Positions 2,462-25,776 of a stretch of 34,640 bases of DNA are shown in pieces. The stretch is from contig JAYUYF010000538.1 in NCBI GenBank assembly GCA_043752605.1, forward strand, positions 1-34,640, written 5' to 3'. Source of the DNA: Roseiflexaceae bacterium. Lineage in GTDB: Bacteria; Chloroflexota; Chloroflexia; Chloroflexales; Roseiflexaceae. Positions within the stretch are counted from its first letter, which is position 1. Every line of letters begins with the position of its first letter. The position numbers were made by a program, and so were the translations under genes. The notes below the pieces were generated by a model, which worked only from the letters and a program-made list of their open reading frames with translations, made no database searches and was not told the DNA's origin.

Positions 2462-2938
2462 ATGATGCGATATCGACGATACACCACGCCAGTTCGTGAT
2501 CGTACAAAGACGACGTGTACGCTGAAGCAGAGCGCAGGACAGGCACTTGTCGAGTTTGCCTTGCTCGCAACGCTGCTGATCACATTGCTACTGGCAGCAT
2601 TTGATTTTGGTCTGGCATTCTATGCCAATCTGGTTGTCAAAAGTGCGGTCTCGGAGGCAGCATACTATTATGCGCAAAATCCGTATGACTGGCCAGGGAC
2701 TGAACAGCGCGCACGGCTCGAATTGCGCGCGCTGAGTAACGCCGCCGGCGCGCAAATCTCATCGACGGTGCTGTCGAGCCCGGCGTGCGATCCGACGCTC
2801 AAGACGATGACACGCAACGTGGTCATTACCTACACACACGAATTTCTTTTTGCACCGGTTGTGCCAGTACCGCAGGTGCAACTCAGCGCTCGTGAAACAT
2901 TTTTACAATCTGGTACATGTCGGGAGATACGCCCGTGA
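2462..2938 (+). CDS. TadE-like pseudopilin
   Basis: SAGQALVEFALLATLLITLLLAAFDFGLAFY is a second G/xxxxEF motif plus hydrophobic helix. Starts 6 nt after the previous stop. Confidence 0.7.
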   Translation: MMRYRRYTTPVRDRTKTTCTLKQSAGQALVEFALLATLLITLLLAAFDFGLAFYANLVVKSAVSEAAYYYAQNPYDWPGTEQRARLELRALSNAAGAQISSTVLSSPACDPTLKTMTRNVVITYTHEFLFAPVVPVPQVQLSARETFLQSGTCREIRP

Positions 2939-4137
2939 AACAGCAAATTGTTGGTAAACTACGCATCAATGACGCAAAATCCGGTCAGGCATTACCATTG
3001 ATCGCACTGATGCTGGTGTTGCTGATCGCATTTGTGGCGCTCGCAACCGATGCGGTGATCGCGCTTTCATTCCGTAGGCTAGCGATTAATGCAGCAGATA
3101 ATGCAGCGCTTATCGCGACTCGCCAGATGATTGAGGCTCGCCGTCTTGGTGGAAGTGGAACAACAATCAACGACACTATCGATACGCTGCTCGCCAACAG
3201 TTTTAGCGGGAGCGGTGCGACAACAATCAGTGCGCAGGCACGCTATGTTGATCTGCTGGGCAACCCGCTCGGTCATGTCACAAATGGTGTGGCGATTCCA
3301 AGCGATGCGCGTGGCATAACTGTCGATACCACATTTCAAATCGAAACGTACTTTTTGCGGCTGTTTGATCAGGATCAATTGACAATTCTTGTGAGTTCGA
3401 CCGCACGTGCTGGCCAGGTTGGTACCGCAACCGGTATCGGTGTACTTCCGCTCGGCATATCGACCGATATTGCGGCGATTATCGAAGATAATCCGAATCA
3501 GGACGTCATCCTGGATCTTCGTGGCCAGCAGTACGACGCGTGGAGCGCTGAACAACCATTTTGCGATCCTACCTACACGGTGACTTTTAACCCTGCACTT
3601 TGTACAGGAATTGACAAGCCCGATGGCGAGAACAACTCGCTGTATATTGTCGGGTTCAAACGACCGACAGCGCCGACGTTCCAGAGAGTTTCCTCCTGCG
3701 CATCGGCAAGTAATGTCAATCGTGTTGAGTACTGGATGTGCCGCGGTAGCCAATATCGGATCGAGGCCAACCGGCTTGGCTATCGTCGTAGTTATTTAAA
3801 TGACAATGCGATGCATGCCCAACGCATGTATCAGACGCTGCGTAGCGGCCGCGCCGTCAATGAGGTGATTTTGTTGCCAGTGATGGGTTTTGAAGTTGCA
3901 CTCGACTCGCCAACAAACAACCCTTTCGATGGCAGCGCACTGATTGTTGTTGATCGGTTTGTGGCTGTCAAAGTGATAAGTTACAACTCCACATATGAAA
4001 ATGTCGTTGTGCGCTACGCAGGTGAGTATGTGACCGCCGGTGGTATTGCCGCCACCGCCAATGATTGCGCGACACCGGCTGATGGACAGGGGCGCTGTAA
4101 TGCTTACGCGATCAATCTTGTCAAAGGTAATGACTAA
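2917..4137 (+). CDS. TadG-like pilus assembly protein
   Basis: N-terminus KSGQALPLIALMLVLLIAFVALATDAVIALSFRRLAINAADNAALIATRQM matches the TadG-type N-terminal pattern (helix, D, then AADxAALA). Overlaps the previous gene by 22 nt. An alternative GTG at 2935 would give a GTGA overlap. Confidence 0.6.
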   Translation: MSGDTPVKQQIVGKLRINDAKSGQALPLIALMLVLLIAFVALATDAVIALSFRRLAINAADNAALIATRQMIEARRLGGSGTTINDTIDTLLANSFSGSGATTISAQARYVDLLGNPLGHVTNGVAIPSDARGITVDTTFQIETYFLRLFDQDQLTILVSSTARAGQVGTATGIGVLPLGISTDIAAIIEDNPNQDVILDLRGQQYDAWSAEQPFCDPTYTVTFNPALCTGIDKPDGENNSLYIVGFKRPTAPTFQRVSSCASASNVNRVEYWMCRGSQYRIEANRLGYRRSYLNDNAMHAQRMYQTLRSGRAVNEVILLPVMGFEVALDSPTNNPFDGSALIVVDRFVAVKVISYNSTYENVVVRYAGEYVTAGGIAATANDCATPADGQGRCNAYAINLVKGND

Positions 4138-4188: not shown

Positions 4189-5302
4189 TTAGGCTTCGAC
4201 TTCGCGGCTGACGTTCCAGCGCAGGTAGGCCTCCACGAAGGGGTCGATATCACCATCGAGTACACCGTGGACGTTGCTGGTCTCGGCTTCGGTGCGATGA
4301 TCCTTCACCAGTGTGTAGGGGTGCAGGTAGTATGTCCGCATCTGGCTGCCAAAATCTGCGGCGCGGTGCTCACCACGCAACTTTGCGCGCTCCTCACGTC
4401 TGCGCTGGATCTCGCGCTCGAGCAGCCGCCCGCGCAGCACCCGCAGCGCGGTCTCCTTGTTTTGCAGTTGCGAGCGCTCGTTTTGACAGGTGACGACGAT
4501 CTGCTCGGGTGTGCCGGCCCGATATGTCAGCCGCACGGCCGAGTCGGTCGTGTTGACGCCCTGGCCGCCGTGGCCACCGGCGCGAAACACGTCGACGCGC
4601 AGATCTTCGAGCCGAACGATGACATCGGCGGTATCATCGACTTCTGGCAGCACCTCGACAAGCGCGAATGATGTCTGCCGCGTGTTGCCCGAGTTGAACG
4701 GCGATAGCCGGATCAGCCGATGCACGCCGGCTTCGGCCTTGACGTTGCCATACGCATAATCGCCGCGAATTTCGAGTGTGGCGCTCTTGATGCCCGCCTC
4801 TTCACCTGCGCTCTCTTCGATCAGCTGCACCTGATAGCCGCGTCGCTCGGCCCAGCGGTTGTACATACGCAGCATCATCTGCGCCCAGTCCTGCGCATCG
4901 CTGCCGCCCATGCCCGCTTTGATCGAAAGGAACGCGTTATTGCCATCGTATGGCGCGCTCAATAATAATTCGATCTCGAGCGCATCGACTTCGGCGCGCA
5001 CAGTCTGATATTCGCGCATCAGCTCATCACGCAGCGAGTCATCATCTTCGCTGGCGGCCATCTCGCTAAGTTCGGCAATTGCGGCCAGTTGCGCATCGGC
5101 ACCCTGCCAGCGATCGATCTCGCGGCGTAGCCGATTGAGCTTTTGCATCACGCCCTGCGCCTCCTGCGGGCGGCTCCAGAGATCGGGGTCTGCGGATTGC
5201 GCCTCGAGCGCATCGGCCTGTTGCTGTTTGCCTGCTAAGTCAAAGACCCCTGCGGATGGCGTCGAAACGCGCCCGCAGGGACTCCAGATCGGTATGTTCC
5301 AT
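4189..5302 (-). CDS. prfB: Peptide chain release factor 2, made by programmed +1 frameshift (join 5302..5243, 5241..4189)
   Basis: ATG at 5302 encodes MEHTDLESLRARFDAIRRGL followed by TGA. The +1 frame continues DLAGKQQQADALEAQSADPDLW... with the GGQ motif (GGHGGQGVNTTDSAVRLT) and SPF region (RLSPFNSGNTRQTSFA). GAGGA lies 4 nt upstream of the ATG. Confidence 0.95.
5239..5251 (-). promoter_or_regulatory. RF2 autoregulatory +1 frameshift site
   Basis: Minus strand reads AGG GGT CTT TGA C: an SD-like AGGGG just upstream of the slippery CTT and an in-frame TGA followed by C, the canonical RF2 recoding signal. Confidence 0.9.
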
Positions 5303-5366
5303 AGCATCCTCGTTGTTGTAAGACCGCCTGTCATGGTACCACAGCGTGTTGTGCCCGGCAATTGGC

Positions 5367-5395
5367 TTGACGCTGGCGAACGTGTGTGCTATGGT
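5367..5395 (+). promoter_or_regulatory. Putative promoter of the NurA-like gene
   Basis: TTGACG (5367-5372), 17 nt, TATGGT (5390-5395) preceded by TGc (extended -10). GGAGG at 5414-5418 precedes ATG 5423. Confidence 0.5.
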
Positions 5396-5422
5396 TGCCG
5401 ATGACCGAACAGGGGAGGAACC

Positions 5423-6631
5423 ATGAGTCTCGATCTCGAAGCGATTGGTCGCCAGCTGCGCGCAATGACGGGCGTGCTGCTGCACGACCACGATAATCGG
5501 CGCGAGCGCGTGCTGCTGGCGCTCGGGCGCTATCTCGAAGACCAGGCGAGCCACACGCAATGGGCCGAGATGGTTGATCTGAGCCAGGAGAGCGCGCAGT
5601 GGCTGCTCGCGCGGCCAGTCGAGCCGCTCGATACGGTCGTCGATTTGCCGCCGCGCCCGGAAGCATACGCGATCGTCGCGACCGATGGCAGCCAGATCGA
5701 TGTCGAACGCCACGGTCCGCTGCCGTGCTATGTGATCAATATCGGCTGTGTCTACCTGCGCTACGGTGCCGAATCGCAGGCGCGGCTCTTCTCGCGCCCG
5801 CAGCTTTTTTATCGCGATGAAGATCGCTTTTTGACCAATGGTATCAAGCGCGTCCCGATCGAGGGCAATTATCTGAGCGCGCGCCGCGATGTCGAGGAGG
5901 GCGCGGTGCTGGCCGAACTGGCGGCCGAGTTGCTGGCGGGTGATCTGCCGCAGATCGCGGTACAGGATGGTACCCTCGTGCGCTGGGCGCTTGCAAACGC
6001 CGAGCAGTTTGTACAAGACCATTTTCTCAGCCGCTACATCGCGTATCTTGACCGCATGGAGGCGCTGGGTGTGCCAGTGGCGTCGTATATCAGTCGCCCG
6101 CGCGCGCCCGAGGCGGCCGGTCTCATCCGGCTGATGTTCTGCCCCGATGTCGATATGGCGGCGGGCAAAGGCGCGGTCTGTAGCACGTGCAGCGATGTCG
6201 CGGCCGGGCGGCCAGTCTCGTGTATGGTCTGCCACGACCTGAGCGATGCCGAAATTCTTGGCGATCTGCTCGCCGAAGGGCAACGCGGCCCGCTGTTTGT
6301 CTCGATGTCACGCATCAATGTCGAGGCGTACGGGCGGCATTTGATCCACTTCTTCTATCTGCGCGTCGGGCGCGAGCTTGCACGCATCGAGATCCCGCGC
6401 TGGGTGGCCGAGGATCGCGCGCAGGTTGATCGGGTACACGCGCTGCTGTACGACCAGTATGAGCGCGGCCAGGGCTACCCGGTGGCGCTCCAGCGCGCCC
6501 ATGAGAAGGCAGTGGTCAAAGCGACCGACCGGCGTACATTCTTGAATATGGTCGAAAATAGCCTGACGCGCGCCGATCTGCCGGTCAATTCATCGCGTAA
6601 GCGTGAGAGCAAGACGCGCCAGGCGTTGTAG
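5423..6631 (+). CDS. NurA-domain-like nuclease with CxxC-x10-CxxC insertion
   Basis: IVATDGSQIDVERHGPLPCYVINIG and IAVQDGTLVRWAL resemble the two acidic DGS/DGxL motifs of NurA 5'-3' nucleases. CSTCSDVAAGRPVSCMVC lies at nt 6179-6232. Strong RBS. Confidence 0.5.
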   Translation: MSLDLEAIGRQLRAMTGVLLHDHDNRRERVLLALGRYLEDQASHTQWAEMVDLSQESAQWLLARPVEPLDTVVDLPPRPEAYAIVATDGSQIDVERHGPLPCYVINIGCVYLRYGAESQARLFSRPQLFYRDEDRFLTNGIKRVPIEGNYLSARRDVEEGAVLAELAAELLAGDLPQIAVQDGTLVRWALANAEQFVQDHFLSRYIAYLDRMEALGVPVASYISRPRAPEAAGLIRLMFCPDVDMAAGKGAVCSTCSDVAAGRPVSCMVCHDLSDAEILGDLLAEGQRGPLFVSMSRINVEAYGRHLIHFFYLRVGRELARIEIPRWVAEDRAQVDRVHALLYDQYERGQGYPVALQRAHEKAVVKATDRRTFLNMVENSLTRADLPVNSSRKRESKTRQAL

Positions 6632-10915: not shown

Positions 10916-11257
10916 TCAATCAGCCGGTTCAAGATAAAAACTGAGCGGATACCCCGCCGCGCGCGCCTGGCTGTGCGCGTCGTAGACACGATCCTGCGCT
11001 TCGCGTAGCGGCAGCATGACGACCAGCGCGCGGCCTGCGGTGTGGGCTTCGCGCATGATCGCGACCGCCTGCTCATTCGATCGCACGAAGATAACCCGTA
11101 AGACAGTTACCACAAACTCCATCGGCGTCGTGTCGTCATTCTCGATGATAACACGGTATGGCCGATCGAGATCGGCTTCGGGCATCACCCGATAGTCGGT
11201 CGTAGGCGAGGTGGTCGTCTCGGGGAGTGGTAGTGTGATAACCTCTGACATCAGCAT
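10916..11257 (-). CDS. clpS: ATP-dependent Clp protease adaptor ClpS
   Basis: YRVIIENDDTTPMEFVVTVLRVIF..SNEQAVAIMREAHTAGRALVVMLPLREAQ is the ClpS core. The start overlaps the upstream regulator's stop (TGATG). Confidence 0.9.
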   Translation of the reverse strand: MLMSEVITLPLPETTTSPTTDYRVMPEADLDRPYRVIIENDDTTPMEFVVTVLRVIFVRSNEQAVAIMREAHTAGRALVVMLPLREAQDRVYDAHSQARAAGYPLSFYLEPAD

Positions 11258-11994
11258 CAGTTCTCGGAAAGCTTATAGCCCACGCCGCGAACTGTGACGA
11301 TGATGCGCGGTTTGGATGGCTCTATCTCGACCTTCTCGCGCAGGCGGCGCACGCAGACATCGACGAGATTGGTCTCGCCGACGTAATCGTAGCCCCAGAC
11401 CTCGCGAAACAGCGTCTCGCGGTCGAAGACATGGCCCGAGTTTGCGGCGAGAAAATAGAGCAACTCGAACTCCATCGGCGTGAGGTTGATTTCTTTACCG
11501 CGCACCAGCACGCGGTGACGCGGCTCGTCAATCTCAAGTTCGCCGACGCGCACAATCGGCGGCGCAGTACGATGTTTGTAGCCTTCAACGCGCCGCAGGA
11601 TCGACTCGACGCGTGCGAGCAGCTCGGCGGTGCGAAACGGCTTGTTGATGTAATCGTCTGCGCCGAGCTCAAAACCGTGGACAACATCATCCGTGCCATC
11701 GCGCGAGGTGATGATGATGATTGGCACATCAGAGCGTGCCCGAATGCGTTCGCAGGCCTCGAAGCCATCGACGTACGGCATCATCACATCGAGCATCACC
11801 AGATCAAACGATTGCTCCTCAAAGGCTTTTAATGCCTCGAGGCCGTTTTTGACAGCGATGATCTCGTAGCGTGGATCTTTGAGCGTAAACTGGATGAGCG
11901 CCGCGATCGACGGATCATCATCGGCGATGAGAATACGGCGTGGCGCGCTCTGTTCTTCGATCGAGCGGTCGGACGTTCTTCGAATTAGTCGCAT
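11257..11994 (-). CDS. OmpR-family response regulator (REC + winged helix)
   Basis: ILIADDDPSIAALI, DLVMLDVMMPYVDGF, PIIIITSRD, DDYINKPF, then LTPMEFELLYFLAANSGHVF...VRGVGYKL. ATG 11994 is preferred. GTG 12003 is an alternative start. Confidence 0.85.
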   Translation of the reverse strand: MRLIRRTSDRSIEEQSAPRRILIADDDPSIAALIQFTLKDPRYEIIAVKNGLEALKAFEEQSFDLVMLDVMMPYVDGFEACERIRARSDVPIIIITSRDGTDDVVHGFELGADDYINKPFRTAELLARVESILRRVEGYKHRTAPPIVRVGELEIDEPRHRVLVRGKEINLTPMEFELLYFLAANSGHVFDRETLFREVWGYDYVGETNLVDVCVRRLREKVEIEPSKPRIIVTVRGVGYKLSEN

Positions 11995-12025
11995 GCATAC
12001 CACCAGGACTCGTACGGTTCAAGTC

Positions 12026-12054
12026 AGTATACGATCGAACCGACGCGCCGTAAA
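12026..12054 (-). promoter_or_regulatory. Putative promoter for the regulator-clpS-gnd unit
   Basis: Minus strand reads TTTACG, 17 nt, TATACT. Hexamer match only. Confidence 0.3.
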
Positions 12055-12072
12055 GTACGACGCGCGGCGATC

Positions 12073-13395
12073 TTAGCCAGCTTCAGGTATGCGGCGGCGG
12101 CTGATGGCGCGATCCGTGGTGCGTGGCACGGTGATCGGATGACCACGGCCGTGAACCACCTCGGCGTTGATAATACAACGCCCGATGTGATCGTGCGACG
12201 GAATATCGTACATCACATCGAGCAGCACTTCCTCGACGATCGTACGTAGCGCGCGCGCGCCGGTGCGGGCGGCCAGCGCTTTGTCGGCAATCGCCTCGAG
12301 CGCATCATCCGTGACTTCGAGTTCGACGTTATCGATCTCGAGCATTTTCTGGTACTGACGGATGATCGCGTTCCGCGGCTCGGTCAAGATTCGGAGCATC
12401 GCCGATCGGTCGAGCGGCTCGAGCGCGACCGTAACCGGCAGACGGCCGATAAACTCGGGGATAAAGCCGTAGCGCAGCAGATCGTCTGGCGTACACTGCG
12501 TGATCAGCGCGCGCTCGTTGATCGGGGCTGCGGCGTCGCCTGCGGCATCGCTCTGGAAGCCAATCGTGCGCCCCTTGCCAACCCGCTGCCCGATGACCTT
12601 CTCAAGGCCTTCGAACGCACCGCCGCAGATAAACAACACGTGCGAGGTATCGAACGAGATATACTCCTGCTGCGGGTGCTTACGGCCGGGCAGTGGTGGC
12701 ACGTGGGCATTGCAGCCTTCGAGGATCTTGAGCAGCGCCTGCTGCACACCTTCGCCCGAGACATCACGCGTAATCGATGGATTGTCGCTTTTGCGCGTAA
12801 TCTTATCGATCTCATCGATATAGATAATGCCGGTCTGTGCGCGCTCGATATCGCCATCGGCGGCCTGGATGAGGCGCAGCAAAATATTCTCGACATCCTC
12901 GCCAACATATCCGGCCTCAGTGAGCGCGGTGGCATCGGCTATCGCAAATGGCACATCGAGCACCTTGGCGAGTGTCTGCGCCAGCAACGTCTTGCCGCTG
13001 CCAGTCGGGCCGATCAGCAACACGTTGCTCTTGCCGATCTCGACATCTTCGACGGCATAATTGGCGCGTAGCCGTTTGTAGTGATTGTAGACCGCGACCG
13101 AGAGGACAATTTTGGCGCGATCCTGGCCGATCACATACTGATCGAGCCGCTCCTTAAGCCGCCGGGGGACGGGCAGGCGAGACGGGCCAAGCGGGGCGGT
13201 GCGCTTTGGCGGCGGTGCCTTGGCGGCGGTCTCTTCGGCGATGATCGCCCCGCAGAGCGCCACGCATTCATCGCAGATAAAGACGGTGCCAGGTCCGGCG
13301 ATCAGGCGCTGAACCTCTTCCTGACCACGACCGCAGAACGAGCAGGTATAGCTACTCCCGCGATTGCTATGGCCGCTGCTACGCGAGCGTGTCAT
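12073..13395 (-). CDS. clpX: ATP-dependent Clp protease ATP-binding subunit ClpX
   Basis: N-terminal zinc finger [28 protein letters not shown], Walker [16 protein letters not shown], Walker [17 protein letters not shown] sensor. Confidence 0.95.
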
Positions 13396-17689: not shown

Positions 17690-18523
17690 CTAGCGGCGCT
17701 GGCCGCGATCGTCTTGATTATTTGCGGGCTTGTGCGGAAACAGATCGTCTTCGAGCACCTCGTAGCTCGCATCGAGTGGGCAGTTTTTTGCCAGTGGACA
17801 CGCGCGGCAGTAGACAGCATCGGTGTAGCGCTCAAGATTATCGCGGTTGAAGAAGTACGGTTTGTGGCTAAAGGTGCTGGCAACCCATTGCCACGAGAGA
17901 TTGTTGCTTGCCGGGTCACCATCGAGCAGATGCTGCAAAAACCAGCGCGCCCCCGCCTGCCATCTGACGCGCCGCCAGTGGACGATATACGCCGCCAGCC
18001 ACAGCCGCATATGATTGTGCAGATAACCATTGTTGTGCAATTCGGCGGCGAACCCGTCCATGCAGGCCAGCCCGGTCGTGCCGTTGCGCACGTCATGCGG
18101 CAGGTCATCGGCGTACTCCCGCGCGGCGAAGCCGGTCTTGTACGGCTCACGATCGTGCCAGATGCCGTTGCCAAGCTGGGCATACAGCCGCTGCCAGTAA
18201 TCGCGCCAGCCGAGTTCATTCACAAACTTGCGGGCGTCGTCCGGGCGGCGCACACGGGTGAGAACGTGATCACGCACCTCAGCGAGGCTGAGGACACCGT
18301 GGCGGATGTAGGGCGAGAGCCGAGTAATTGCCCCGCCGATGTGGTTGCGCGATGCGGCGTATTGCCGTGGCTCAACGGCGCTGAGCTTCTCTTCGGCCGC
18401 AGCACGCCCGCCGATGATTGTACTGATGGCTGGGTCAACCTGTGCGGCAACGGGGAATTGTTCGCGGATGTAAGATGCCAGATCTTCGCGGTCGGCGAAC
18501 TCGCGGCGCATGTCGTTGGTCAT
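17690..18523 (-). CDS. Photolyase/cryptochrome FAD-binding-domain-only protein (no N-terminal alpha/beta domain)
   Basis: GGRAAAEEKL...YAASRNHIGGAITRLSPYIRHGVLS, NELGWRDYW, GTTGLACMDGFAAELHNNGYLHNHMRLWLAAY, LLDGDPASNNLSWQWVAST. ATG 18523 (MTNDMRREF) is preceded by GGAG. The upstream part of the ORF-track ORF is repeat-encoded. Confidence 0.75.
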   Translation of the reverse strand: MTNDMRREFADREDLASYIREQFPVAAQVDPAISTIIGGRAAAEEKLSAVEPRQYAASRNHIGGAITRLSPYIRHGVLSLAEVRDHVLTRVRRPDDARKFVNELGWRDYWQRLYAQLGNGIWHDREPYKTGFAAREYADDLPHDVRNGTTGLACMDGFAAELHNNGYLHNHMRLWLAAYIVHWRRVRWQAGARWFLQHLLDGDPASNNLSWQWVASTFSHKPYFFNRDNLERYTDAVYCRACPLAKNCPLDASYEVLEDDLFPHKPANNQDDRGQRR

Positions 18524-18546
18524 TGAATTGATCTCCAATTGGGTAT

Positions 18547-18626
18547 GATCTCGTCGGGACGCAGCATGCTGCGTCCGTACACGGCGGCGGGAGCGGATCT
18601 CGTCGGGACGCAGCATGCTGCGTCCC
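18547..18626. repeat. Two tandem 30-bp direct repeats (period 49), each containing a perfect 20-22-bp GC-rich palindrome
   Basis: GATCTCGTCGGGACGCAGCATGCTGCGTCC at 18547-18576 and 18596-18625. Palindrome core GGACGCAGCATGCTGCGTCC, extended to 22 bp (GGGACGCAGCATGCTGCGTCCC) in copy 2, which abuts the DUF2256 stop codon. Confidence 0.9.
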
Positions 18627-18784
18627 TACGGTCGTTTGCCGCCGCTGTTTTTAAATTTACGACACGCATCGCTGCAATATTTCACCTCATCCCAGTTTTT
18701 GGCCATGCTCTTGCGCCAGGTGAACGGCCGACCACATGCGGCGCAGATCTTCTCTGGCAGATGTTCTTTTTTAACGCCGCGCAC
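18626..18784 (-). CDS. DUF2256-type zinc-ribbon protein
   Basis: KKEHLPEKICAACGRPFTWRKSMAKNWDEVKYCSDACRK matches the DUF2256 pattern as I remember it (CxxCGRPFxWRK...W..V.YCS..CR). GTG 18784 has GGAGGA 5 nt upstream and overlaps the upstream gene by 14 nt. The ORF-track ATG 18889 would overlap by 119 nt. Confidence 0.75.
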   Translation of the reverse strand: MRGVKKEHLPEKICAACGRPFTWRKSMAKNWDEVKYCSDACRKFKNSGGKRP

Positions 18785-20380: not shown

Positions 20381-20997
20381 TTACGCTGAAAACAACCGGG
20401 CGAGAAACGCGATGAGTGTGCGTGCGGCTGTCGCATTACGGTTGAGGTAGCGCTGAGCAGGGACACCAACCTGAAGACCTGGCTCGTCTTACCAGGCAAG
20501 CCAGATATGTACGTGCGCCTTCTGACGGTCTTTCGGCGCAAATCGCTTCTCGGGCAATGCGTCCAGTGTCGTCGCGGCGTGGCCCCAGAGAATATCTTCA
20601 TTTGGCACCAGCGCCCCGATAAATTGTTCAAGCGCCCAATATTCTGGTTGTCTGGCATCAACCAGAACCCGACCGTCGGTCGCTCGGAAGCGGAAAGGAT
20701 CGTTCCTATTGGATCGGGAGTGCCCGGCAGCGCATCGTACCCATTGCGGCGAAGAGTATCGCAGCAACGCGTCCACGTATTGGCCAGATCATCGTCGGCA
20801 TCGATGATTATGCCGATAGCCGTATACTGCTTATCATCTCGTATCGGCAACTGTGCGCGCAGTGTTTTGAGCACACCGTCTTTGCCATCCCGGCGCTCGA
20901 TAGTCACATCTGGAAGCACAGGCTGATAGTGTTCTATCAGACTTTGCAGAACGACTTCGTCACCACGACCTTCAACACAGAGCACCGATCGAGCCAC
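20381..20997 (-). pseudogene. Toprim-like small partner gene of the upstream ATPase, disrupted by a 1-nt frameshift (~20635) and an in-frame TAA (20489-20491)
   Basis: GTG 20997 shares 1 nt with the ATPase stop. Frame A gives MARSVLCVEGRGDEVV...IGIIIDADDD...GFWLMPDNQNIG. The protein-like continuation ALEQFIGALVPNEDILWGHAATTLDALPEKRFAPKDRQKAHVHIWLAW is in the -1 frame. After the TAA the same frame stays open for DEPGLQVGVPAQRYLNRNATAARTLIAFLARLFSA up to TAA 20381-20383. The reconstructed product is ~205 aa. Confidence 0.6.
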
Positions 20998-21941
20998 TAG
21001 CGCACCTCGACCGCTTCTTCGACGGCAGCAGTAAGATCCTCTTCATCGTAGATCGACGCCACTACGTCGCCTTTGCGATGGCCAAGCCGCACCAGCACAC
21101 CTACCTGCGGGTGTGCGGTCGCTGCTTCCTGGAACGCGCGCACACAATCCTGACTGTGGGTGGTTGCGAACACCTGAATGTTGAGTTCGCTCGCGAGATA
21201 GAAGATGAGCTTCCAGACATCTGGTTGCACCGAATAGTGAAACCCATTCTCGATCTCGTCGACAAGTAATACACCGCCCGGTACATTGACGAGTGCCAAC
21301 GCCAGGCCAAACAACCGCACCATGCCTTCGCCAAGCGAACGCAGGGCAACCGGAAACGTATCGCCCTGGAGCCGAACCTTTGGACTACGCTTACCGCGAC
21401 GCTGACCATTCTCGACCACTGCGATGGCAACGCGCTCGACGCGCGGTTCGATGATGCGCAGTGCGTTGATGACCTGCTCTTCGTAGATTGAGACCGCAAT
21501 TTTATCCCAGAAGGCGATGAGTCGGTCGGTGCTGAGACCACCAGCATGAATGGTAACCAGCGGCGAACCGTTCCACGCTGGATGGGCAGACCAGAGCCGC
21601 AGCATTTTCTTCGCCGGGCGCACGTAAATATCGCCATCTGCATCAAACGGAATACCCTTGTGTGGCCCAATCTCGACAGGTGATTGAGCAGGGACACCGC
21701 GACATTGCACTGAACGCCAGTCGGGGAATTCTTCGTCGCGGCGAACCGTGACTTGATCGACCGGAACCGACGAATTCGATCCTTCCTGGCTTACATACAA
21801 CTCAATTGCTTCGAGCAGACTTGTCTTGCCAACATTGTTCTTGCCCACGATCAGATTGACTCGGCCAAGCTGTTCGACCACAAGGTGGCGAAATCCGCGG
21901 TAGTTGTGTAGTTCAAGCGAGTCGAGAACAATATCATCCAT
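20997..21941 (-). CDS. ABC/SMC-like AAA ATPase (AAA_21/AAA_15-like, OLD-family ATPase-domain-like)
   Basis: LELHNYRGFRHLVVEQLGRVNLIVGKNNVGKTSLLEAIELY (Walker A), signature-like LRSLGEGMVRLFGLALAL, Walker B GVLLVDEIENGFH, H-loop VFATTHSQD. Appears intact at 314 aa. Confidence 0.8.
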   Translation of the reverse strand: MDDIVLDSLELHNYRGFRHLVVEQLGRVNLIVGKNNVGKTSLLEAIELYVSQEGSNSSVPVDQVTVRRDEEFPDWRSVQCRGVPAQSPVEIGPHKGIPFDADGDIYVRPAKKMLRLWSAHPAWNGSPLVTIHAGGLSTDRLIAFWDKIAVSIYEEQVINALRIIEPRVERVAIAVVENGQRRGKRSPKVRLQGDTFPVALRSLGEGMVRLFGLALALVNVPGGVLLVDEIENGFHYSVQPDVWKLIFYLASELNIQVFATTHSQDCVRAFQEAATAHPQVGVLVRLGHRKGDVVASIYDEEDLTAAVEEAVEVR

Positions 21942-21970: not shown

Positions 21971-21979
21971 ATTGTACCA
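21971..21979 (-). promoter_or_regulatory. Putative extended -10 promoter (TGgTACAAT) for the ATPase module
   Basis: Minus strand reads TGGTACAAT about 30 nt upstream of ATG 21941. Weak -35 and weak RBS. Confidence 0.3.
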
Positions 21980-22051
21980 CTGCCCTACCCGATTGACACG
22001 CCGTGCGTTGCCTGGCAATATGTTCCGCCTCTACAGACGATTCATGGGCCT

Positions 22052-23140: not shown

Positions 23141-24091
23141 ATGCGCACACTGGTGATCGGCGCCGGGGTCTCGGGGCTCACCACCGCCATCCGGCTACTG
23201 GAGGCAAGCCATCAGGTGACGATCGCCGCCGCCGCACAGGGCCGCGCGATTGTTTCGTCGGTGGCGGCCGCGATCTGGTATCCGTACAAAGCCTACCCGC
23301 AGCATCTTGTCAGCGCCTGGGGTGCGACGACCTACGCCGAGCTGGTGCGCCTGATACCAGATTCGGCGACCGGGATCGTGCTGCGCCGCGGCCGCGAGCT
23401 CTTTCACGCACCCGAACCCGATCCGTGGTGGCGCGCGGCGGTGCCCGACTGGCGGCGTGCGACACCTGCAGAGCTGCCCGCGGGTTATGTTGATGGTTTC
23501 GCATACTCGACCCCAATCATCGATATGCTGCGCTATCTGCCGTGGCTCGCAGCGCGTGTCACCACGCTTGGCGGCCAGATTGTCGTGCAGGATATCACTG
23601 ATCTCGATGCGTGCCTGGCAGAGTATGATCTGGTCGTCGATTGTGCCGGGCTGGGCGCGCGTATGCTTGTGGGCGATGCCACGCTGACGCCGATCCGTGG
23701 CCAGGTCATCCGCGTCGCGCAGGTCGGTCTTGAAGAATTCTTCCTCGACGACAACAACCCGGCCGGCATTGTGTATATCATCCCGCGCATCGATGATATT
23801 GTGCTGGGTGGCACTGCGCAATCGGGTGACGCCACGATGGAGCCAGACCCGGCGACGGCCGCTGCGATTCTGGCGCGCTGTATCGCACTGGAGCCACGGC
23901 TGCGCGATGCCGCGATTATCGAGCATCGCGTCGGCCTGCGGCCCGGCCGCCCCGCCATCCGGCTCGAACGCGAGCAGCGCGCGGGTGGCGTGGTGATCCA
24001 CAATTACGGCCACGGCGGCGCGGGTGTCACGCTCTCGTGGGGCTGTGCGCAGGCGGTGATCGATCTTCTACAGACGGAGAAAGCGCCATGA
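23141..24091 (+). CDS. FAD-dependent oxidoreductase, D-amino-acid-oxidase-like
   Basis: [28 protein letters not shown] dinucleotide-binding motif and C-terminal [17 protein letters not shown], typical of DAAO. The stop overlaps the dcd start (ATGA). Confidence 0.8.
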
Positions 24092-25776
24092 GTATCAAGG
24101 CAGATCGCTGGATCCAGCAGATGGCCACCGAGCACGGCATGATCGAGCCGTTTGTGGCCGATCAGGTACGCGGCGGGCAAATTTCGTATGGCCTGTCATC
24201 GTATGGTTATGATATGCGGATCGCCGACGAATTCAAGGTTTTTACCAACATTTACAATACCCTCGTTGACCCAAAGCAATTCGATAATCGCTCATTTGTC
24301 GATTTCAATGCGCCATATATCGATATCCCGCCGAATTCGTTTGCACTCGGGCGGTCAATCGAGTACTTCCGCATCCCGCGCAATGTCTTGTGCATTGTGC
24401 TCGGAAAGAGCACCTATGCGCGCTGTTTCAGCGGTGACACACGGGTTGCACTGGTCGATGGTACATCGGTTGCGTTTGCCGATATGGCTGAACGTGCGTC
24501 GCGTGGTGAGCACTTCTGGGGCTACAGCATTGGCCAACACGGGCGGGTGATTGTCACGTTGCTTGATGCGCCGCGCCTTGTTGGTCGGGATAGTCTGCTC
24601 GAAATCGAACTCGACAACGGCGAGACGATTCGCGCGACGCCCGATCACGAGTTCGTCGGCCGCGACGGTCGATTGGTGCAGGCGGCCGCGCTTCGACCGG
24701 GAGCGTCGCTGATGCCGCTCTATCGCGATGTGTTTCGTGGCTACGAGATGGTGTATCAGCCGATTATCGGCTACTATGAGCCAACACATCGCCTTGCAGA
24801 TGAGTGGAATGTGCGTGCTGAACTATATATCGATGCTCCTGATACCGACCGACATCATATCGACCACAATCGTCGAAACAATAGCCCGACGAACCTGATC
24901 CGTATGAACGAGAGTGATCATGCACGCTATCATAATCGCGAATATTATGATAGCGATGACTTTAATCCGATAGAGCACGGCGAGTCGATCCGTGCAGCAT
25001 TCGAGCGGTTGAGTGTCGATGAAGATTGGATAGCGAGGATGTCGGCGGCTCAGCGCGCACGGGTGCGAGCATTCTGGGAAGAACCTCGCTATGCGAATAT
25101 TCGTGAACAGCTCATTTCGCAACGAGTTACCTACTGGAGTGATACGAAGAATCGCGATGCACAACGTGAACGACAGCAGGTGTACTGGGAAAATGAGGAT
25201 CAACGTGCTGAACGCGCGGAATTTTCACGAAGTGTTTGGGAGCAGAGTGATTTGCCGCGCCGTGAGCGCCAGCGTGAGATTGCGCGTGCAATAAATATAC
25301 GAAGTGAGATCGACGCCGACCAGGTACGTGCAGCGCTTGACAAAACGGGTTCCATTCGAGGTACAGCGCGACTGTTGGAATGTGACCGATCTGTCTTCCG
25401 AAGATTTCCGCAAGTTATCGATGAGTTTCGCGGTACGAAAGCACTTAATCACAAAGTCGTGTCGGTTCGCGCAATTCCAGGCTCACACGATGTATATTGC
25501 CTCACCGTACCAGAAGCAGGCAATTTTGCCCTCGAAGCTGGCGTCTTCGTGAAAAATTGTGGCCTGATCGTAAACGTGACACCTCTGGAACCTGCCTGGG
25601 AAGGCTATGTGACGATTGAGGTGAGCAACACGACGCAGTTGCCGGCACGCGTCTACGCCAACGAAGGGATCGCGCAGGTGTTGTTCCTCGAGAGCGATGA
25701 GCAATGCATGACGTCGTACGCGGATAAGGCGGGCAAATATCAGGGGCAGGTGGGCGTGGTGCCACCGCGACTGTGA
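24088..25776 (+). CDS. dcd: dCTP deaminase precursor containing an intein (exteins 24088-24423 and 25558-25773, ~184 aa after splicing)
   Basis: Exteins [22 protein letters not shown]...[17 protein letters not shown]...[33 protein letters not shown] and [46 protein letters not shown]...GKYQGQ join into a normal short Dcd. GGAGA RBS lies before ATG 24088. Confidence 0.9.
24424..25557 (+). mobile_element. Intein (378 codons) with HNH-type endonuclease, W-centred repeats and HTH
   Basis: Begins [13 protein letters not shown] (block A) and contains TPDH (block B). HNH motif [27 protein letters not shown] at ~24850-24935. Ends [23 protein letters not shown], followed by extein Cys 25558. Confidence 0.85.

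Follow-up and report, generated by a model that had tools for sequence, protein, structure and literature searches.

The locus at positions 20381 to 21941 of contig JAYUYF010000538.1 (assembly GCA_043752605.1, Roseiflexaceae bacterium) raises a question in two parts: which known family does its pair of genes, one for an ATPase and one for a small Toprim-like protein, belong to, and is the pair still a working defence system? The whole stretch of DNA analyzed here, 34,640 nucleotides (nt) long, is called the window. On its minus strand, a gene for an ABC-type ATPase of 314 amino acids (aa; 20997-21941) is followed head to tail by a DUF3226 gene (20381-20997). We consider it probable that this locus is a horizontally acquired and now degenerate copy of a cassette of an ABC ATPase and a DUF3226 protein, PDC-M38, the intact copies of which would, by analogy, act as sensor-effector systems.

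The family of the pair was established by profile searches with hidden Markov models (HMMs). In Pfam, the ATPase matches AAA_15 (5e-22) and AAA_21 (2e-20), and its partner matches DUF3226 (PF11536) in two pieces, at 1e-28 over profile positions 2-126 and at 3e-10 over positions 122-172, both well outside chance; the N-terminal fragment scores 100.8 bits and the middle fragment 40.7 bits against a gathering threshold of 27 bits. These families had been named among several candidates in the initial annotation of this DNA, which also proposed the architecture of an ABC/SMC-type ATPase with a separate small Toprim-like protein, and both proposals are borne out by Pfam and the open reading frames (ORFs). 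Among the PADLOC models, PDC-M38A (PDLC04611) is the best of 133 families matching the ATPase (6.2e-88); the next best are AbiLi (5.9e-53) and AriA (3.5e-25 and 1.1e-20), and the HEC-01 A model reaches 2.3e-12. The partner matches PDC-M38B (PDLC04624, 5e-19 over codons 1-125; PDLC04623, 1.8e-6 on the second-frame fragment), as do all 27 partner homologues. NCBIfam holds no specific model for the pair; there the N-terminal P-loop of the ATPase shows likeness to PtuA, RecF, Rad50 and the retron Eco8 effector.

Two other assignments were tried and rejected. Membership of PARIS fails at the partner, which reaches a nonsignificant 0.06 with the AriB model and has no match to DUF4435 in Pfam. Membership of AbiL fails in the same gene: the ATPase matches AbiLi, and the partner matches neither AbiLii nor RloB at E <= 1 in PADLOC or Pfam. 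The remaining PADLOC match of the partner, to HEC-01B at 0.014, is not significant either. By its profile matches the pair can be assigned to PDC-M38 as a degenerate member, which replaces the earlier view that it could not be placed in a named system and might be an undescribed variant. Both the A and the B model are matched, by neighbouring genes of one strand, but only the A gene looks complete, the B gene carrying an internal TAA and, in the window, a frameshift as well.

PDC stands for "phage defence candidate", a label for cassettes that were discovered inside BREX, DISARM or type I restriction-modification (RM) systems and added to PADLOC as predictions; CAS_00138 and CAS_00155 were assigned to PDC-M38 in supplementary file 8 of Payne et al. 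(bioRxiv 10.1101/2024.01.29.577857). PDC-M38 is a predicted candidate, and membership in it carries no information on function. The DefensePredictor preprint makes no mention of Toprim or OLD. An unnamed Nostoc pair of an ATPase and a Toprim protein was reportedly described by Makarova in 2011.

The ATPase gene encodes GKNNVGKTS, LGEGMVR, LLVDEIENGFH and ATTHS exactly at the motifs and coordinates first given for it. The G of its TAG stop, at 20997, also opens the GTG start codon of the DUF3226 gene, a one-nucleotide overlap that couples the two genes translationally, as had been proposed. The DUF3226 gene begins with MARSVLCVEGRGDE and encodes GIIIDADDD further in. Past codon 121, its first frame no longer holds protein-like sequence and the homology resumes in another frame (ALEQFIGALVP...KAHVHIWLAW), which ends at a TAA; beyond this stop lie 35 more in-frame codons (DEPGLQVG...FLARLFSA), closing at the TAA of 20381-20383. 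The partner of about 205 aa that had been reconstructed is therefore real, and two repairs are needed to obtain it, one for a 1-nt deletion after codon 121 and one for an in-frame TAA. The features of the locus are as follows.

20997..21941, minus strand: ABC-type ATPase gene (PDC-M38A; AAA_15 and AAA_21), 314 aa, appears intact.
20635..20997, minus strand: DUF3226 codons 1-121, with the predicted Toprim core (E9, D13, D66xD68); Pfam DUF3226 1e-28, PDC-M38B 5e-19.
20635..20637, minus strand: frameshift site, GGG here and GGGG elsewhere, from comparison with other assemblies of the organism.
20492..20634, minus strand: DUF3226 codons 122-169 in the other frame, including E124 and K160; ORF 20489-20776, DUF3226 3e-10.
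20489..20491, minus strand: premature TAA in place of the conserved Gln after WLAW, common to all assemblies of the organism.
20381..20488, minus strand: apparent relic of the C-terminal 35 codons (DEPGLQVGVPAQRYLNRNATAARTLIAFLARLFSA) with the original TAA at 20381-20383, aligning to the family tail (E/D)EPG...RLF.
21971..21999, minus strand: possible sigma-70-like promoter, GTGTCA-17-TACAAT with TG, 30 nt upstream of the ATG, from a consensus scan.

The promoter scan found 2 sites against 1.0 +/- 1.0 expected by chance, which is not significant, and the terminator scan found nothing above chance.

What kind of protein is the partner? The initial annotation had read its acidic residues as the Glu plus DxD arrangement of Toprim/OLD nucleases. 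We examined the family in alignment A1, numbering positions by the intact homologue P0123, which is 43% identical to the window protein. The conserved columns are E13, G14, D17, D69 in a DxD, G113/W115/M117/P118, E127, K165, WLAW171-174, Q175, P178, G179 and W204; E13 and D17 are conserved in at least 90% of sequences and D69 is invariant. In the window, the equivalents of the putative catalytic residues are E9, D13, D66, D68, E124 and K160. The AlphaFold2 (AF2) model of P0123, with a pLDDT (predicted local distance difference test) of 92.4 and a predicted template modelling score (pTM) of 0.89, has an alternating strand-helix core with strands 8-12, 35-38 and 63-69, followed by a helical domain, and it shows the Toprim hallmark of a Glu after strand 1 and a DxD after strand 3 on a beta-alpha-beta sheet. 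The acidic motifs are thus conserved and the idea of a Toprim protein, which an absence of such a fold or motifs was meant to overturn, stands.

The fold evidence is weak and points toward OLD. In a Foldseek search of the PDB with the P0123 model, four of the six best matches are the C-terminal regions of class 2 OLD proteins (6njx, 6njw, 6nk8 and 6njv; probability 0.72-0.95, TM 0.32-0.50, E 0.013-0.043), and the AriB chain 8ux9_A ranks 17th (probability 0.13). The Pfam family OLD-like_TOPRIM is matched by 6 of the 27 homologues (best 4e-5). The other weak PADLOC matches of these 27 are only to Toprim-bearing defence proteins, HEC-01B (8 of 27, best 1.6e-4), AriB, GajA and Old. These results accord with the relation to OLD that had been suggested for the pair. 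A sequence search of the PDB with the A1 profile gave only chance matches and, in addition, AriB at E 0.15. As a search artefact, Fab chains fill the low-significance part of this list, since the invariant WLAWQ(E/D)xPG happens to look like WLAWYQQKPG, a framework segment in the kappa light chains of antibodies.

A closer comparison is possible with the OLD protein of Burkholderia (BpOLD). Schiltz et al. (PMC6755086) place in its two-metal active site E400, E404 and D455/D457, then T506/E508 on the helix that opens the helical domain and K562 on a later helix, and they describe a C-terminal amphipathic helix that packs on the Toprim sheet. The order and spacing recur in DUF3226, as E13, D17 (+4) and D69xD71, then E127, where the first helix past the sheet begins, then K165 and, at 196-210, a C-terminal helix. 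From residue order and secondary structure we infer that these residues correspond. It seems that DUF3226 combines a Toprim domain of the OLD type with a helical domain, as judged from conserved residues and the model, with a statistically weak match to OLD.

The ATPase keeps all 39 invariant columns of the 32-sequence alignment A2. Set against 93 independent reference homologues, it deviates at 4 of the 52 columns with a conservation of at least 90%, and 12 of the 93 deviate as much or more, so by its sequence it looks intact rather than decayed. Most relatives are about 55 residues longer, the difference lying in a variable insert that follows the first helix. P0002 (49% identical, 315 aa), the closest relative of the ATPase, shares the short form of the insert, and the gene after it is an intact DUF3226 gene of 209 aa. 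The AF2 model of the ATPase (pLDDT 81) has the Rad50 / SMC-head / PtuA fold (E of about 1e-10). Its profile matches in the PDB include the retron Eco8 OLD nuclease, PtuA, GajA, Rad50 and RecF, and at E <= 1e-3 AriA is absent from them.

The damage to the partner gene consists of two lesions of different standing. The first is the frameshift. The exact ATPase protein is found on 7 contigs of public assemblies, and an unframeshifted 169-aa partner (P0121) is called on 8 contigs from independent samples; in the NCBI source the ATPase is present and P0121 is absent. The frameshift is a 1-nt deletion in a run of four G, the window reading GGG and four other loci of the organism (L001-L004) GGGG. 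Over 1.9 kb, this extra G is the sole difference between L001-L004 and the window, and in an alignment of about 20 kb between the window and L001 it is the only indel, alongside 16 single-nucleotide polymorphisms. Codons 122-169 of the window are identical to those of P0121. The frameshift is private to the window's record, as a genuine variant of the strain or as an error in the homopolymer.

The second lesion is the TAA at 20489-20491, which occurs in every assembly of the organism, including L001-L004. In the HMM alignment, the residue at this position is Q in 101 of 102 homologues and K in the other. Because Q follows WLAW almost without exception, a single CAA-to-TAA transition would explain the stop. 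The product of the TAA allele has 169 aa and lacks the last two helices, and the frameshifted allele additionally loses E124 and K160. The relic tail scores 0.996 bits per position, the lowest of 102 homologues (mean 1.49, standard deviation [SD] 0.14), the HMM having been trained on reference sequences and not on the window sequence. The translated part of the partner ranks 8th from the bottom among the 102, and the difference between tail and body is about 3 SD below the mean. Among the changes in the tail, F has replaced W at W204 (at least 90% conserved in A1), and the conserved "AI" has suffered a deletion. This divergence fits relaxed selection since the stop arose. Therefore, the earlier suggestion of a decaying partner gene is borne out, with the qualification that the frameshift belongs to the window only and the TAA to the whole population. 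Since the nonsense TAA drops the last two helices and the window frameshift drops E124 and K160, the system is, by its sequence, most likely inactive here, leaving an intact-looking orphan ATPase.

The relic tail was also considered as a separate ORF, which was rejected: it has no in-frame ATG, GTG or TTG until its last four codons. Within the pair there is an exact 14-nt direct repeat, TGAGCAGGGACACC, at 20454-20467 and 21685-21698, which encodes GVPAQ both in the DUF3226 relic tail and in the variable insert of the ATPase. The copy in the tail coincides with a stretch that is off the family consensus. By chance, 2.8 kb should hold about 0.015 such matches, and the two copies have no flanking similarity.

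The composition of the pair agrees with the impression that it is AT-richer than its surroundings and looks foreign, and the effect is real but modest. The GC content is 0.558 in the pair, 0.61-0.62 in the flanking genes and 0.608 in the whole window, which places the pair in the lowest 7% of windows of the same size. GC at third codon positions (GC3) is 0.60 and 0.555 in the two genes versus 0.70-0.75 in most neighbouring genes, which is consistent with horizontal acquisition. The flanks are chromosomal, with a DPRP gene, DUF2256, a photolyase FAD-binding protein, an EEP-family protein and a DAO oxidase. No integrase or transposase is found among the neighbours of the pair, no convincing direct or inverted repeats flank it, and the window contains no tRNA gene.

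How do the relatives behave elsewhere? A profile search of 1.84 billion representative proteins returned 4910 clusters at E <= 1e-3, 1330 of them at E <= 1e-30 (clusters at 50% identity, about 4900 in the family). Judged by the best 150 of the 4910 clusters, with lengths of 201-321 aa and matches that in every case extend to profile positions 211-214 of 215, DUF3226 proteins are normally full-length. At one genome per species, at least 590 GTDB species genomes encode a relative, in Chloroflexota, Armatimonadota, Acidobacteriota, Planctomycetota, Pseudomonadota, Cyanobacteriota, Myxococcota, Verrucomicrobiota and other phyla. In the 80 GTDB loci that were kept, the ATPase is almost always upstream. 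Both genes are intact at 64 of the 70 loci with enough upstream DNA, and the stop-to-start spacing is mostly -4 to +4 nt; at the damaged loci the ATPase is affected in 4 cases and the partner in 2. Loci L030, L034, L035 and L046 have an intact-looking DUF3226 gene beside a truncated or split ATPase gene, and at the metagenomic locus L011 (7583-8678) a 138-aa ATPase remnant stands with an intact partner. The order of decay at these loci is opposite to that in the window.

The initial annotation had proposed to check whether intact relatives lie in defence islands. Mostly they do not: intact pairs are for the most part solitary among unrelated housekeeping genes, and the neighbourhoods differ in every case examined. 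An exception is locus L028 (Anaerolineaceae metagenome-assembled genome, VFKN01000069.1, 1068-15602), where an intact pair lies inside an Hma system, in the one-strand order HmaA (E = 0), two small ORFs, the pair, HmaB (4e-302), one ORF and HmaC; the ORFs at 4617-5345, 5382-6008 and 11013-12167 match no PADLOC model. The pair is also carried by small plasmids. On 4.7-kb ColRNAI plasmids of E. coli and Klebsiella (L095, NZ_CP082125.1), it is the sole cargo beyond replication functions, the intact E. coli plasmid pair being WP_064765252.1 / WP_064765251.1. On a 6.4-kb ColE10/MOBQ Citrobacter plasmid (L096, NZ_CP055541.1; PDC-M38A 2e-139, B 7e-79) it is essentially the only accessory cargo, and on an Acinetobacter plasmid it adjoins BrnTA. 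In complete E. coli genomes the pair occurs in 9 of 5426, always on small plasmids. No structure in the viral library matched at 1e-3 or better. A total absence of defence or mobile contexts, together with a housekeeping role, had been named as grounds for giving up the defence idea. Most contexts are indeed neither, but mobile or defence contexts do occur, in the plasmids that carry the pair, in its embedding in Hma and in the cassettes from which the PADLOC models came, and no conserved housekeeping partner appears.

According to the above observations, intact copies probably work like PARIS or OLD, as a sensor ATPase with a Toprim nuclease effector (PMC10802264, PMC10568477). In this scheme, an ABC (Rad50/SMC-like) ATPase would be made together with a translationally coupled DUF3226 nuclease of about 215 aa. 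By analogy with PARIS and OLD/Gabija, an ATPase oligomer would hold or control the nuclease and sense a phage or foreign-DNA cue; an ATP-dependent rearrangement would then license the Toprim nuclease to cut nucleic acid, which would stop the invader or the infected cell. In the present locus, the presumed CAA-to-TAA change would have removed the last two helices of the effector, and the -1 frameshift of the window also E124 and K160. The data show to which family the pair belongs, how its genes are damaged, which residues are conserved, and the distribution and genomic contexts of relatives; the defence function, the sensor-effector mechanism and the dead 169-aa product are what we infer.

Several results weigh against this reading. 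The P0123 model has no Foldseek match in the PDB at E <= 1e-3, and the window's own partner protein does not match OLD-like_TOPRIM. HEC-01, of similar architecture, gave no protection when tested in E. coli. Among the nearest two ORFs on each side at 38 loci (141 ORFs), which contain 177 Pfam families with none in more than 2 ORFs, the neighbours are mostly metabolic or housekeeping and few are of defence type. A tblastn search of the phage genome collection found no match to the pair, and in the papers searched no main-text mention of DUF3226, PF11536, PDC-M38 or four RefSeq protein accessions was found, nor any published test or characterisation of the family. The loss of the ATPase with the nuclease kept, seen at 4 of the 6 decayed GTDB loci and at L011, argues against a strict PARIS-like toxin-antitoxin; because this loss is tolerated in four to five genomes, it hints that the nuclease is not a free-standing toxin, on a small sample in which the nuclease genes might carry inactivating point mutations. 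Finally, the 169-aa allele retains all the putative catalytic residues, so its loss of function is unproven.

The likelier of two alternatives, though we judge it unlikely, is that the family is not anti-phage at all. It would instead be a selfish maintenance, addiction or anti-plasmid module of small mobile elements, or a DNA repair pair of a Rad50/RecF-like ATPase and a Toprim nuclease that chromosomes sometimes capture. The small plasmids speak for it, the pair being sole cargo on the 4.7-kb ColRNAI type, adjoining BrnTA in Acinetobacter and confined to such replicons in E. coli, as do the mostly solitary chromosomal copies with few defence neighbours and the failure of HEC-01 to protect against phage. 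A repair role would suit the resemblance of the ATPase to Rad50 and RecF and the photolyase-related genes beside the window pair. However, the photolyase adjacency is unique to the window genome, and with neighbourhoods that are not conserved the pair forms no repair operon. All of the strongest profile matches are to defence ATPases (PDC-M38A, AbiLi, AriA, GajA and PtuA), one instance lies inside Hma, and the PADLOC cassettes are embedded in BREX, DISARM or RM. The loci with a lost ATPase and an intact nuclease also argue against simple addiction.

Less probable still is that the system works in this organism, the frameshift being a homopolymer error of assembly or sequencing and the 169-aa protein a shortened variant acting with the intact ATPase. 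The 8 contigs from independent samples, with their intact G4 run, encode exactly this protein; its putative catalytic residues all lie upstream of the TAA, the ATPase has no sign of decay and the allele is fixed across samples. On the other hand, all 102 homologues, with their Q (in 101) at the stop position, extend at least 30 residues further, and the best 150 of 4910 clusters run to the end of the profile. The lost segment holds the near-invariant P178, G179 and W204 and a confidently modelled terminal helix. In BpOLD, the likely equivalent of this segment is helix alpha6H, which is packed against the Toprim sheet, and deleting most of the BpOLD helical domain abolishes activity (PMC6755086). 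The relic tail, about 3 SD more diverged than the body, is what relaxed selection after a truncation would leave. A recoded TAA is unsupported, because the other genes of the window have normal ORFs.

The preferred reading thus remains a degenerate copy of a candidate defence cassette, and the locus itself matters little, being a pseudogenised copy of a catalogued family and a poor choice for experiments. The family is of wider interest as a further branch of the theme that joins an ABC ATPase to an OLD/Toprim protein (PARIS, AbiL, RloAB and Gabija). It is known so far only as a listed candidate, widely spread and carried on tiny plasmids of E. coli and Klebsiella, and its intact members are a reasonable experimental target. 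For these the present analysis points to clonable intact pairs, among them those of NZ_CP082125.1 and of Citrobacter pRHBSTW-00398_4 and the closest intact relative, at L005 (8001-9579), as well as to a specific residue set and a truncation. We would tentatively go one step further, in a proposal that we hold as possible but rather doubtful: PDC-M38 may be a genuine anti-phage or anti-plasmid system unlike PARIS, with a two-metal OLD-like nuclease whose WLAWQ helical domain would serve activity or docking on a compact ABC ATPase. It would not be a toxin-antitoxin, because genomes tolerate the loss of either partner. If this is true, the window copy would be a natural experiment in which the loss of the C-terminal helices is the inactivating lesion.

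Other parts of the window offer a few observations apart from the pair. Its further genes include trigger factor, ClpP, ClpX, RF-1/2 and Tad pilus genes, and a dCTP deaminase-like gene at 24037-25776 on the plus strand that is split by an intein (Pfam DCD 1.8e-25, Intein_splicing 7.9e-14) and has a GC3 of 0.566, low beside that of its neighbours. At 2917-4137 on the plus strand, directly after two TadE-like pilus genes, a 406-aa ORF that matches nothing in Pfam shows the window's minimum in both GC (0.516) and GC3 (0.516) and may be another foreign or fast-evolving gene. A 49-nt tandem repeat, GATCTCGTCGGGACGCAGCATGCTGCGTCCGTACACGGCGGCGGGAGCG, lies at 18547-18640, beside the DUF2256 gene and around the point where the ORF of the photolyase FAD-binding domain (17690-18616) has its upstream end. 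Each of its units contains a GC-rich palindrome, and the copy number differs between assemblies, with about 2 in the window and 3 in L001.

The place of the pair among known systems can now be stated. In PARIS, which offers the best-understood template for a mechanism, a hexamer of the ATPase sequesters the nuclease until a trigger releases it, and AbiL and RloAB have been grouped with it (PMC10802264). The likeness of the window pair to PARIS lies in its two genes, an ABC ATPase and then a separate, putative OLD-family Toprim effector, and in the AriA models that match the ATPase, although the AriA match (3.5e-25) falls far below the PDC-M38A and AbiLi scores. The differences are that the window partner belongs to DUF3226 whereas AriB belongs to DUF4435, that the ATPases of the pair have 314-390 aa whereas AriA has 53-55 kDa with a coiled-coil four-helix bundle, and that loci without the ATPase but with the nuclease suggest no strict toxin-antitoxin dependence. 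AbiL and RloAB share the arrangement of an ATPase and a Toprim/OLD protein, with the strong AbiLi match of the window ATPase (5.9e-53), but the window partner comes from a different family of Toprim partners.

The OLD proteins of class 1 (P2 Old and TsOLD) and class 2 (GajA) also combine an ABC ATPase with a catalytic region that is Toprim and helical. In both classes, however, these domains form one polypeptide, whereas in the pair they are split over two genes; class 2 has an adjacent UvrD-like helicase, and the pair has no such partner, no helicase being found among its DPRP and EEP neighbours. The sequence similarity to OLD is marginal, and the DUF3226 helical domain carries a family-specific invariant WLAWQ motif. 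HEC-01 likewise consists of an ABC ATPase together with a Toprim protein, is embedded in Hma systems and came from the same discovery route, but it belongs to other HMM families, the window genes reaching 2.3e-12 for A and 0.014 for B. PDC-M38 has the same HMM families, gene order, strand and tight coupling as the window pair, which differs from it in the truncated and frameshifted B gene and the short first insert of the ATPase. The Hma-embedded relative L028 reproduces the "guilt by embedding" logic by which PDC-M38 was defined.

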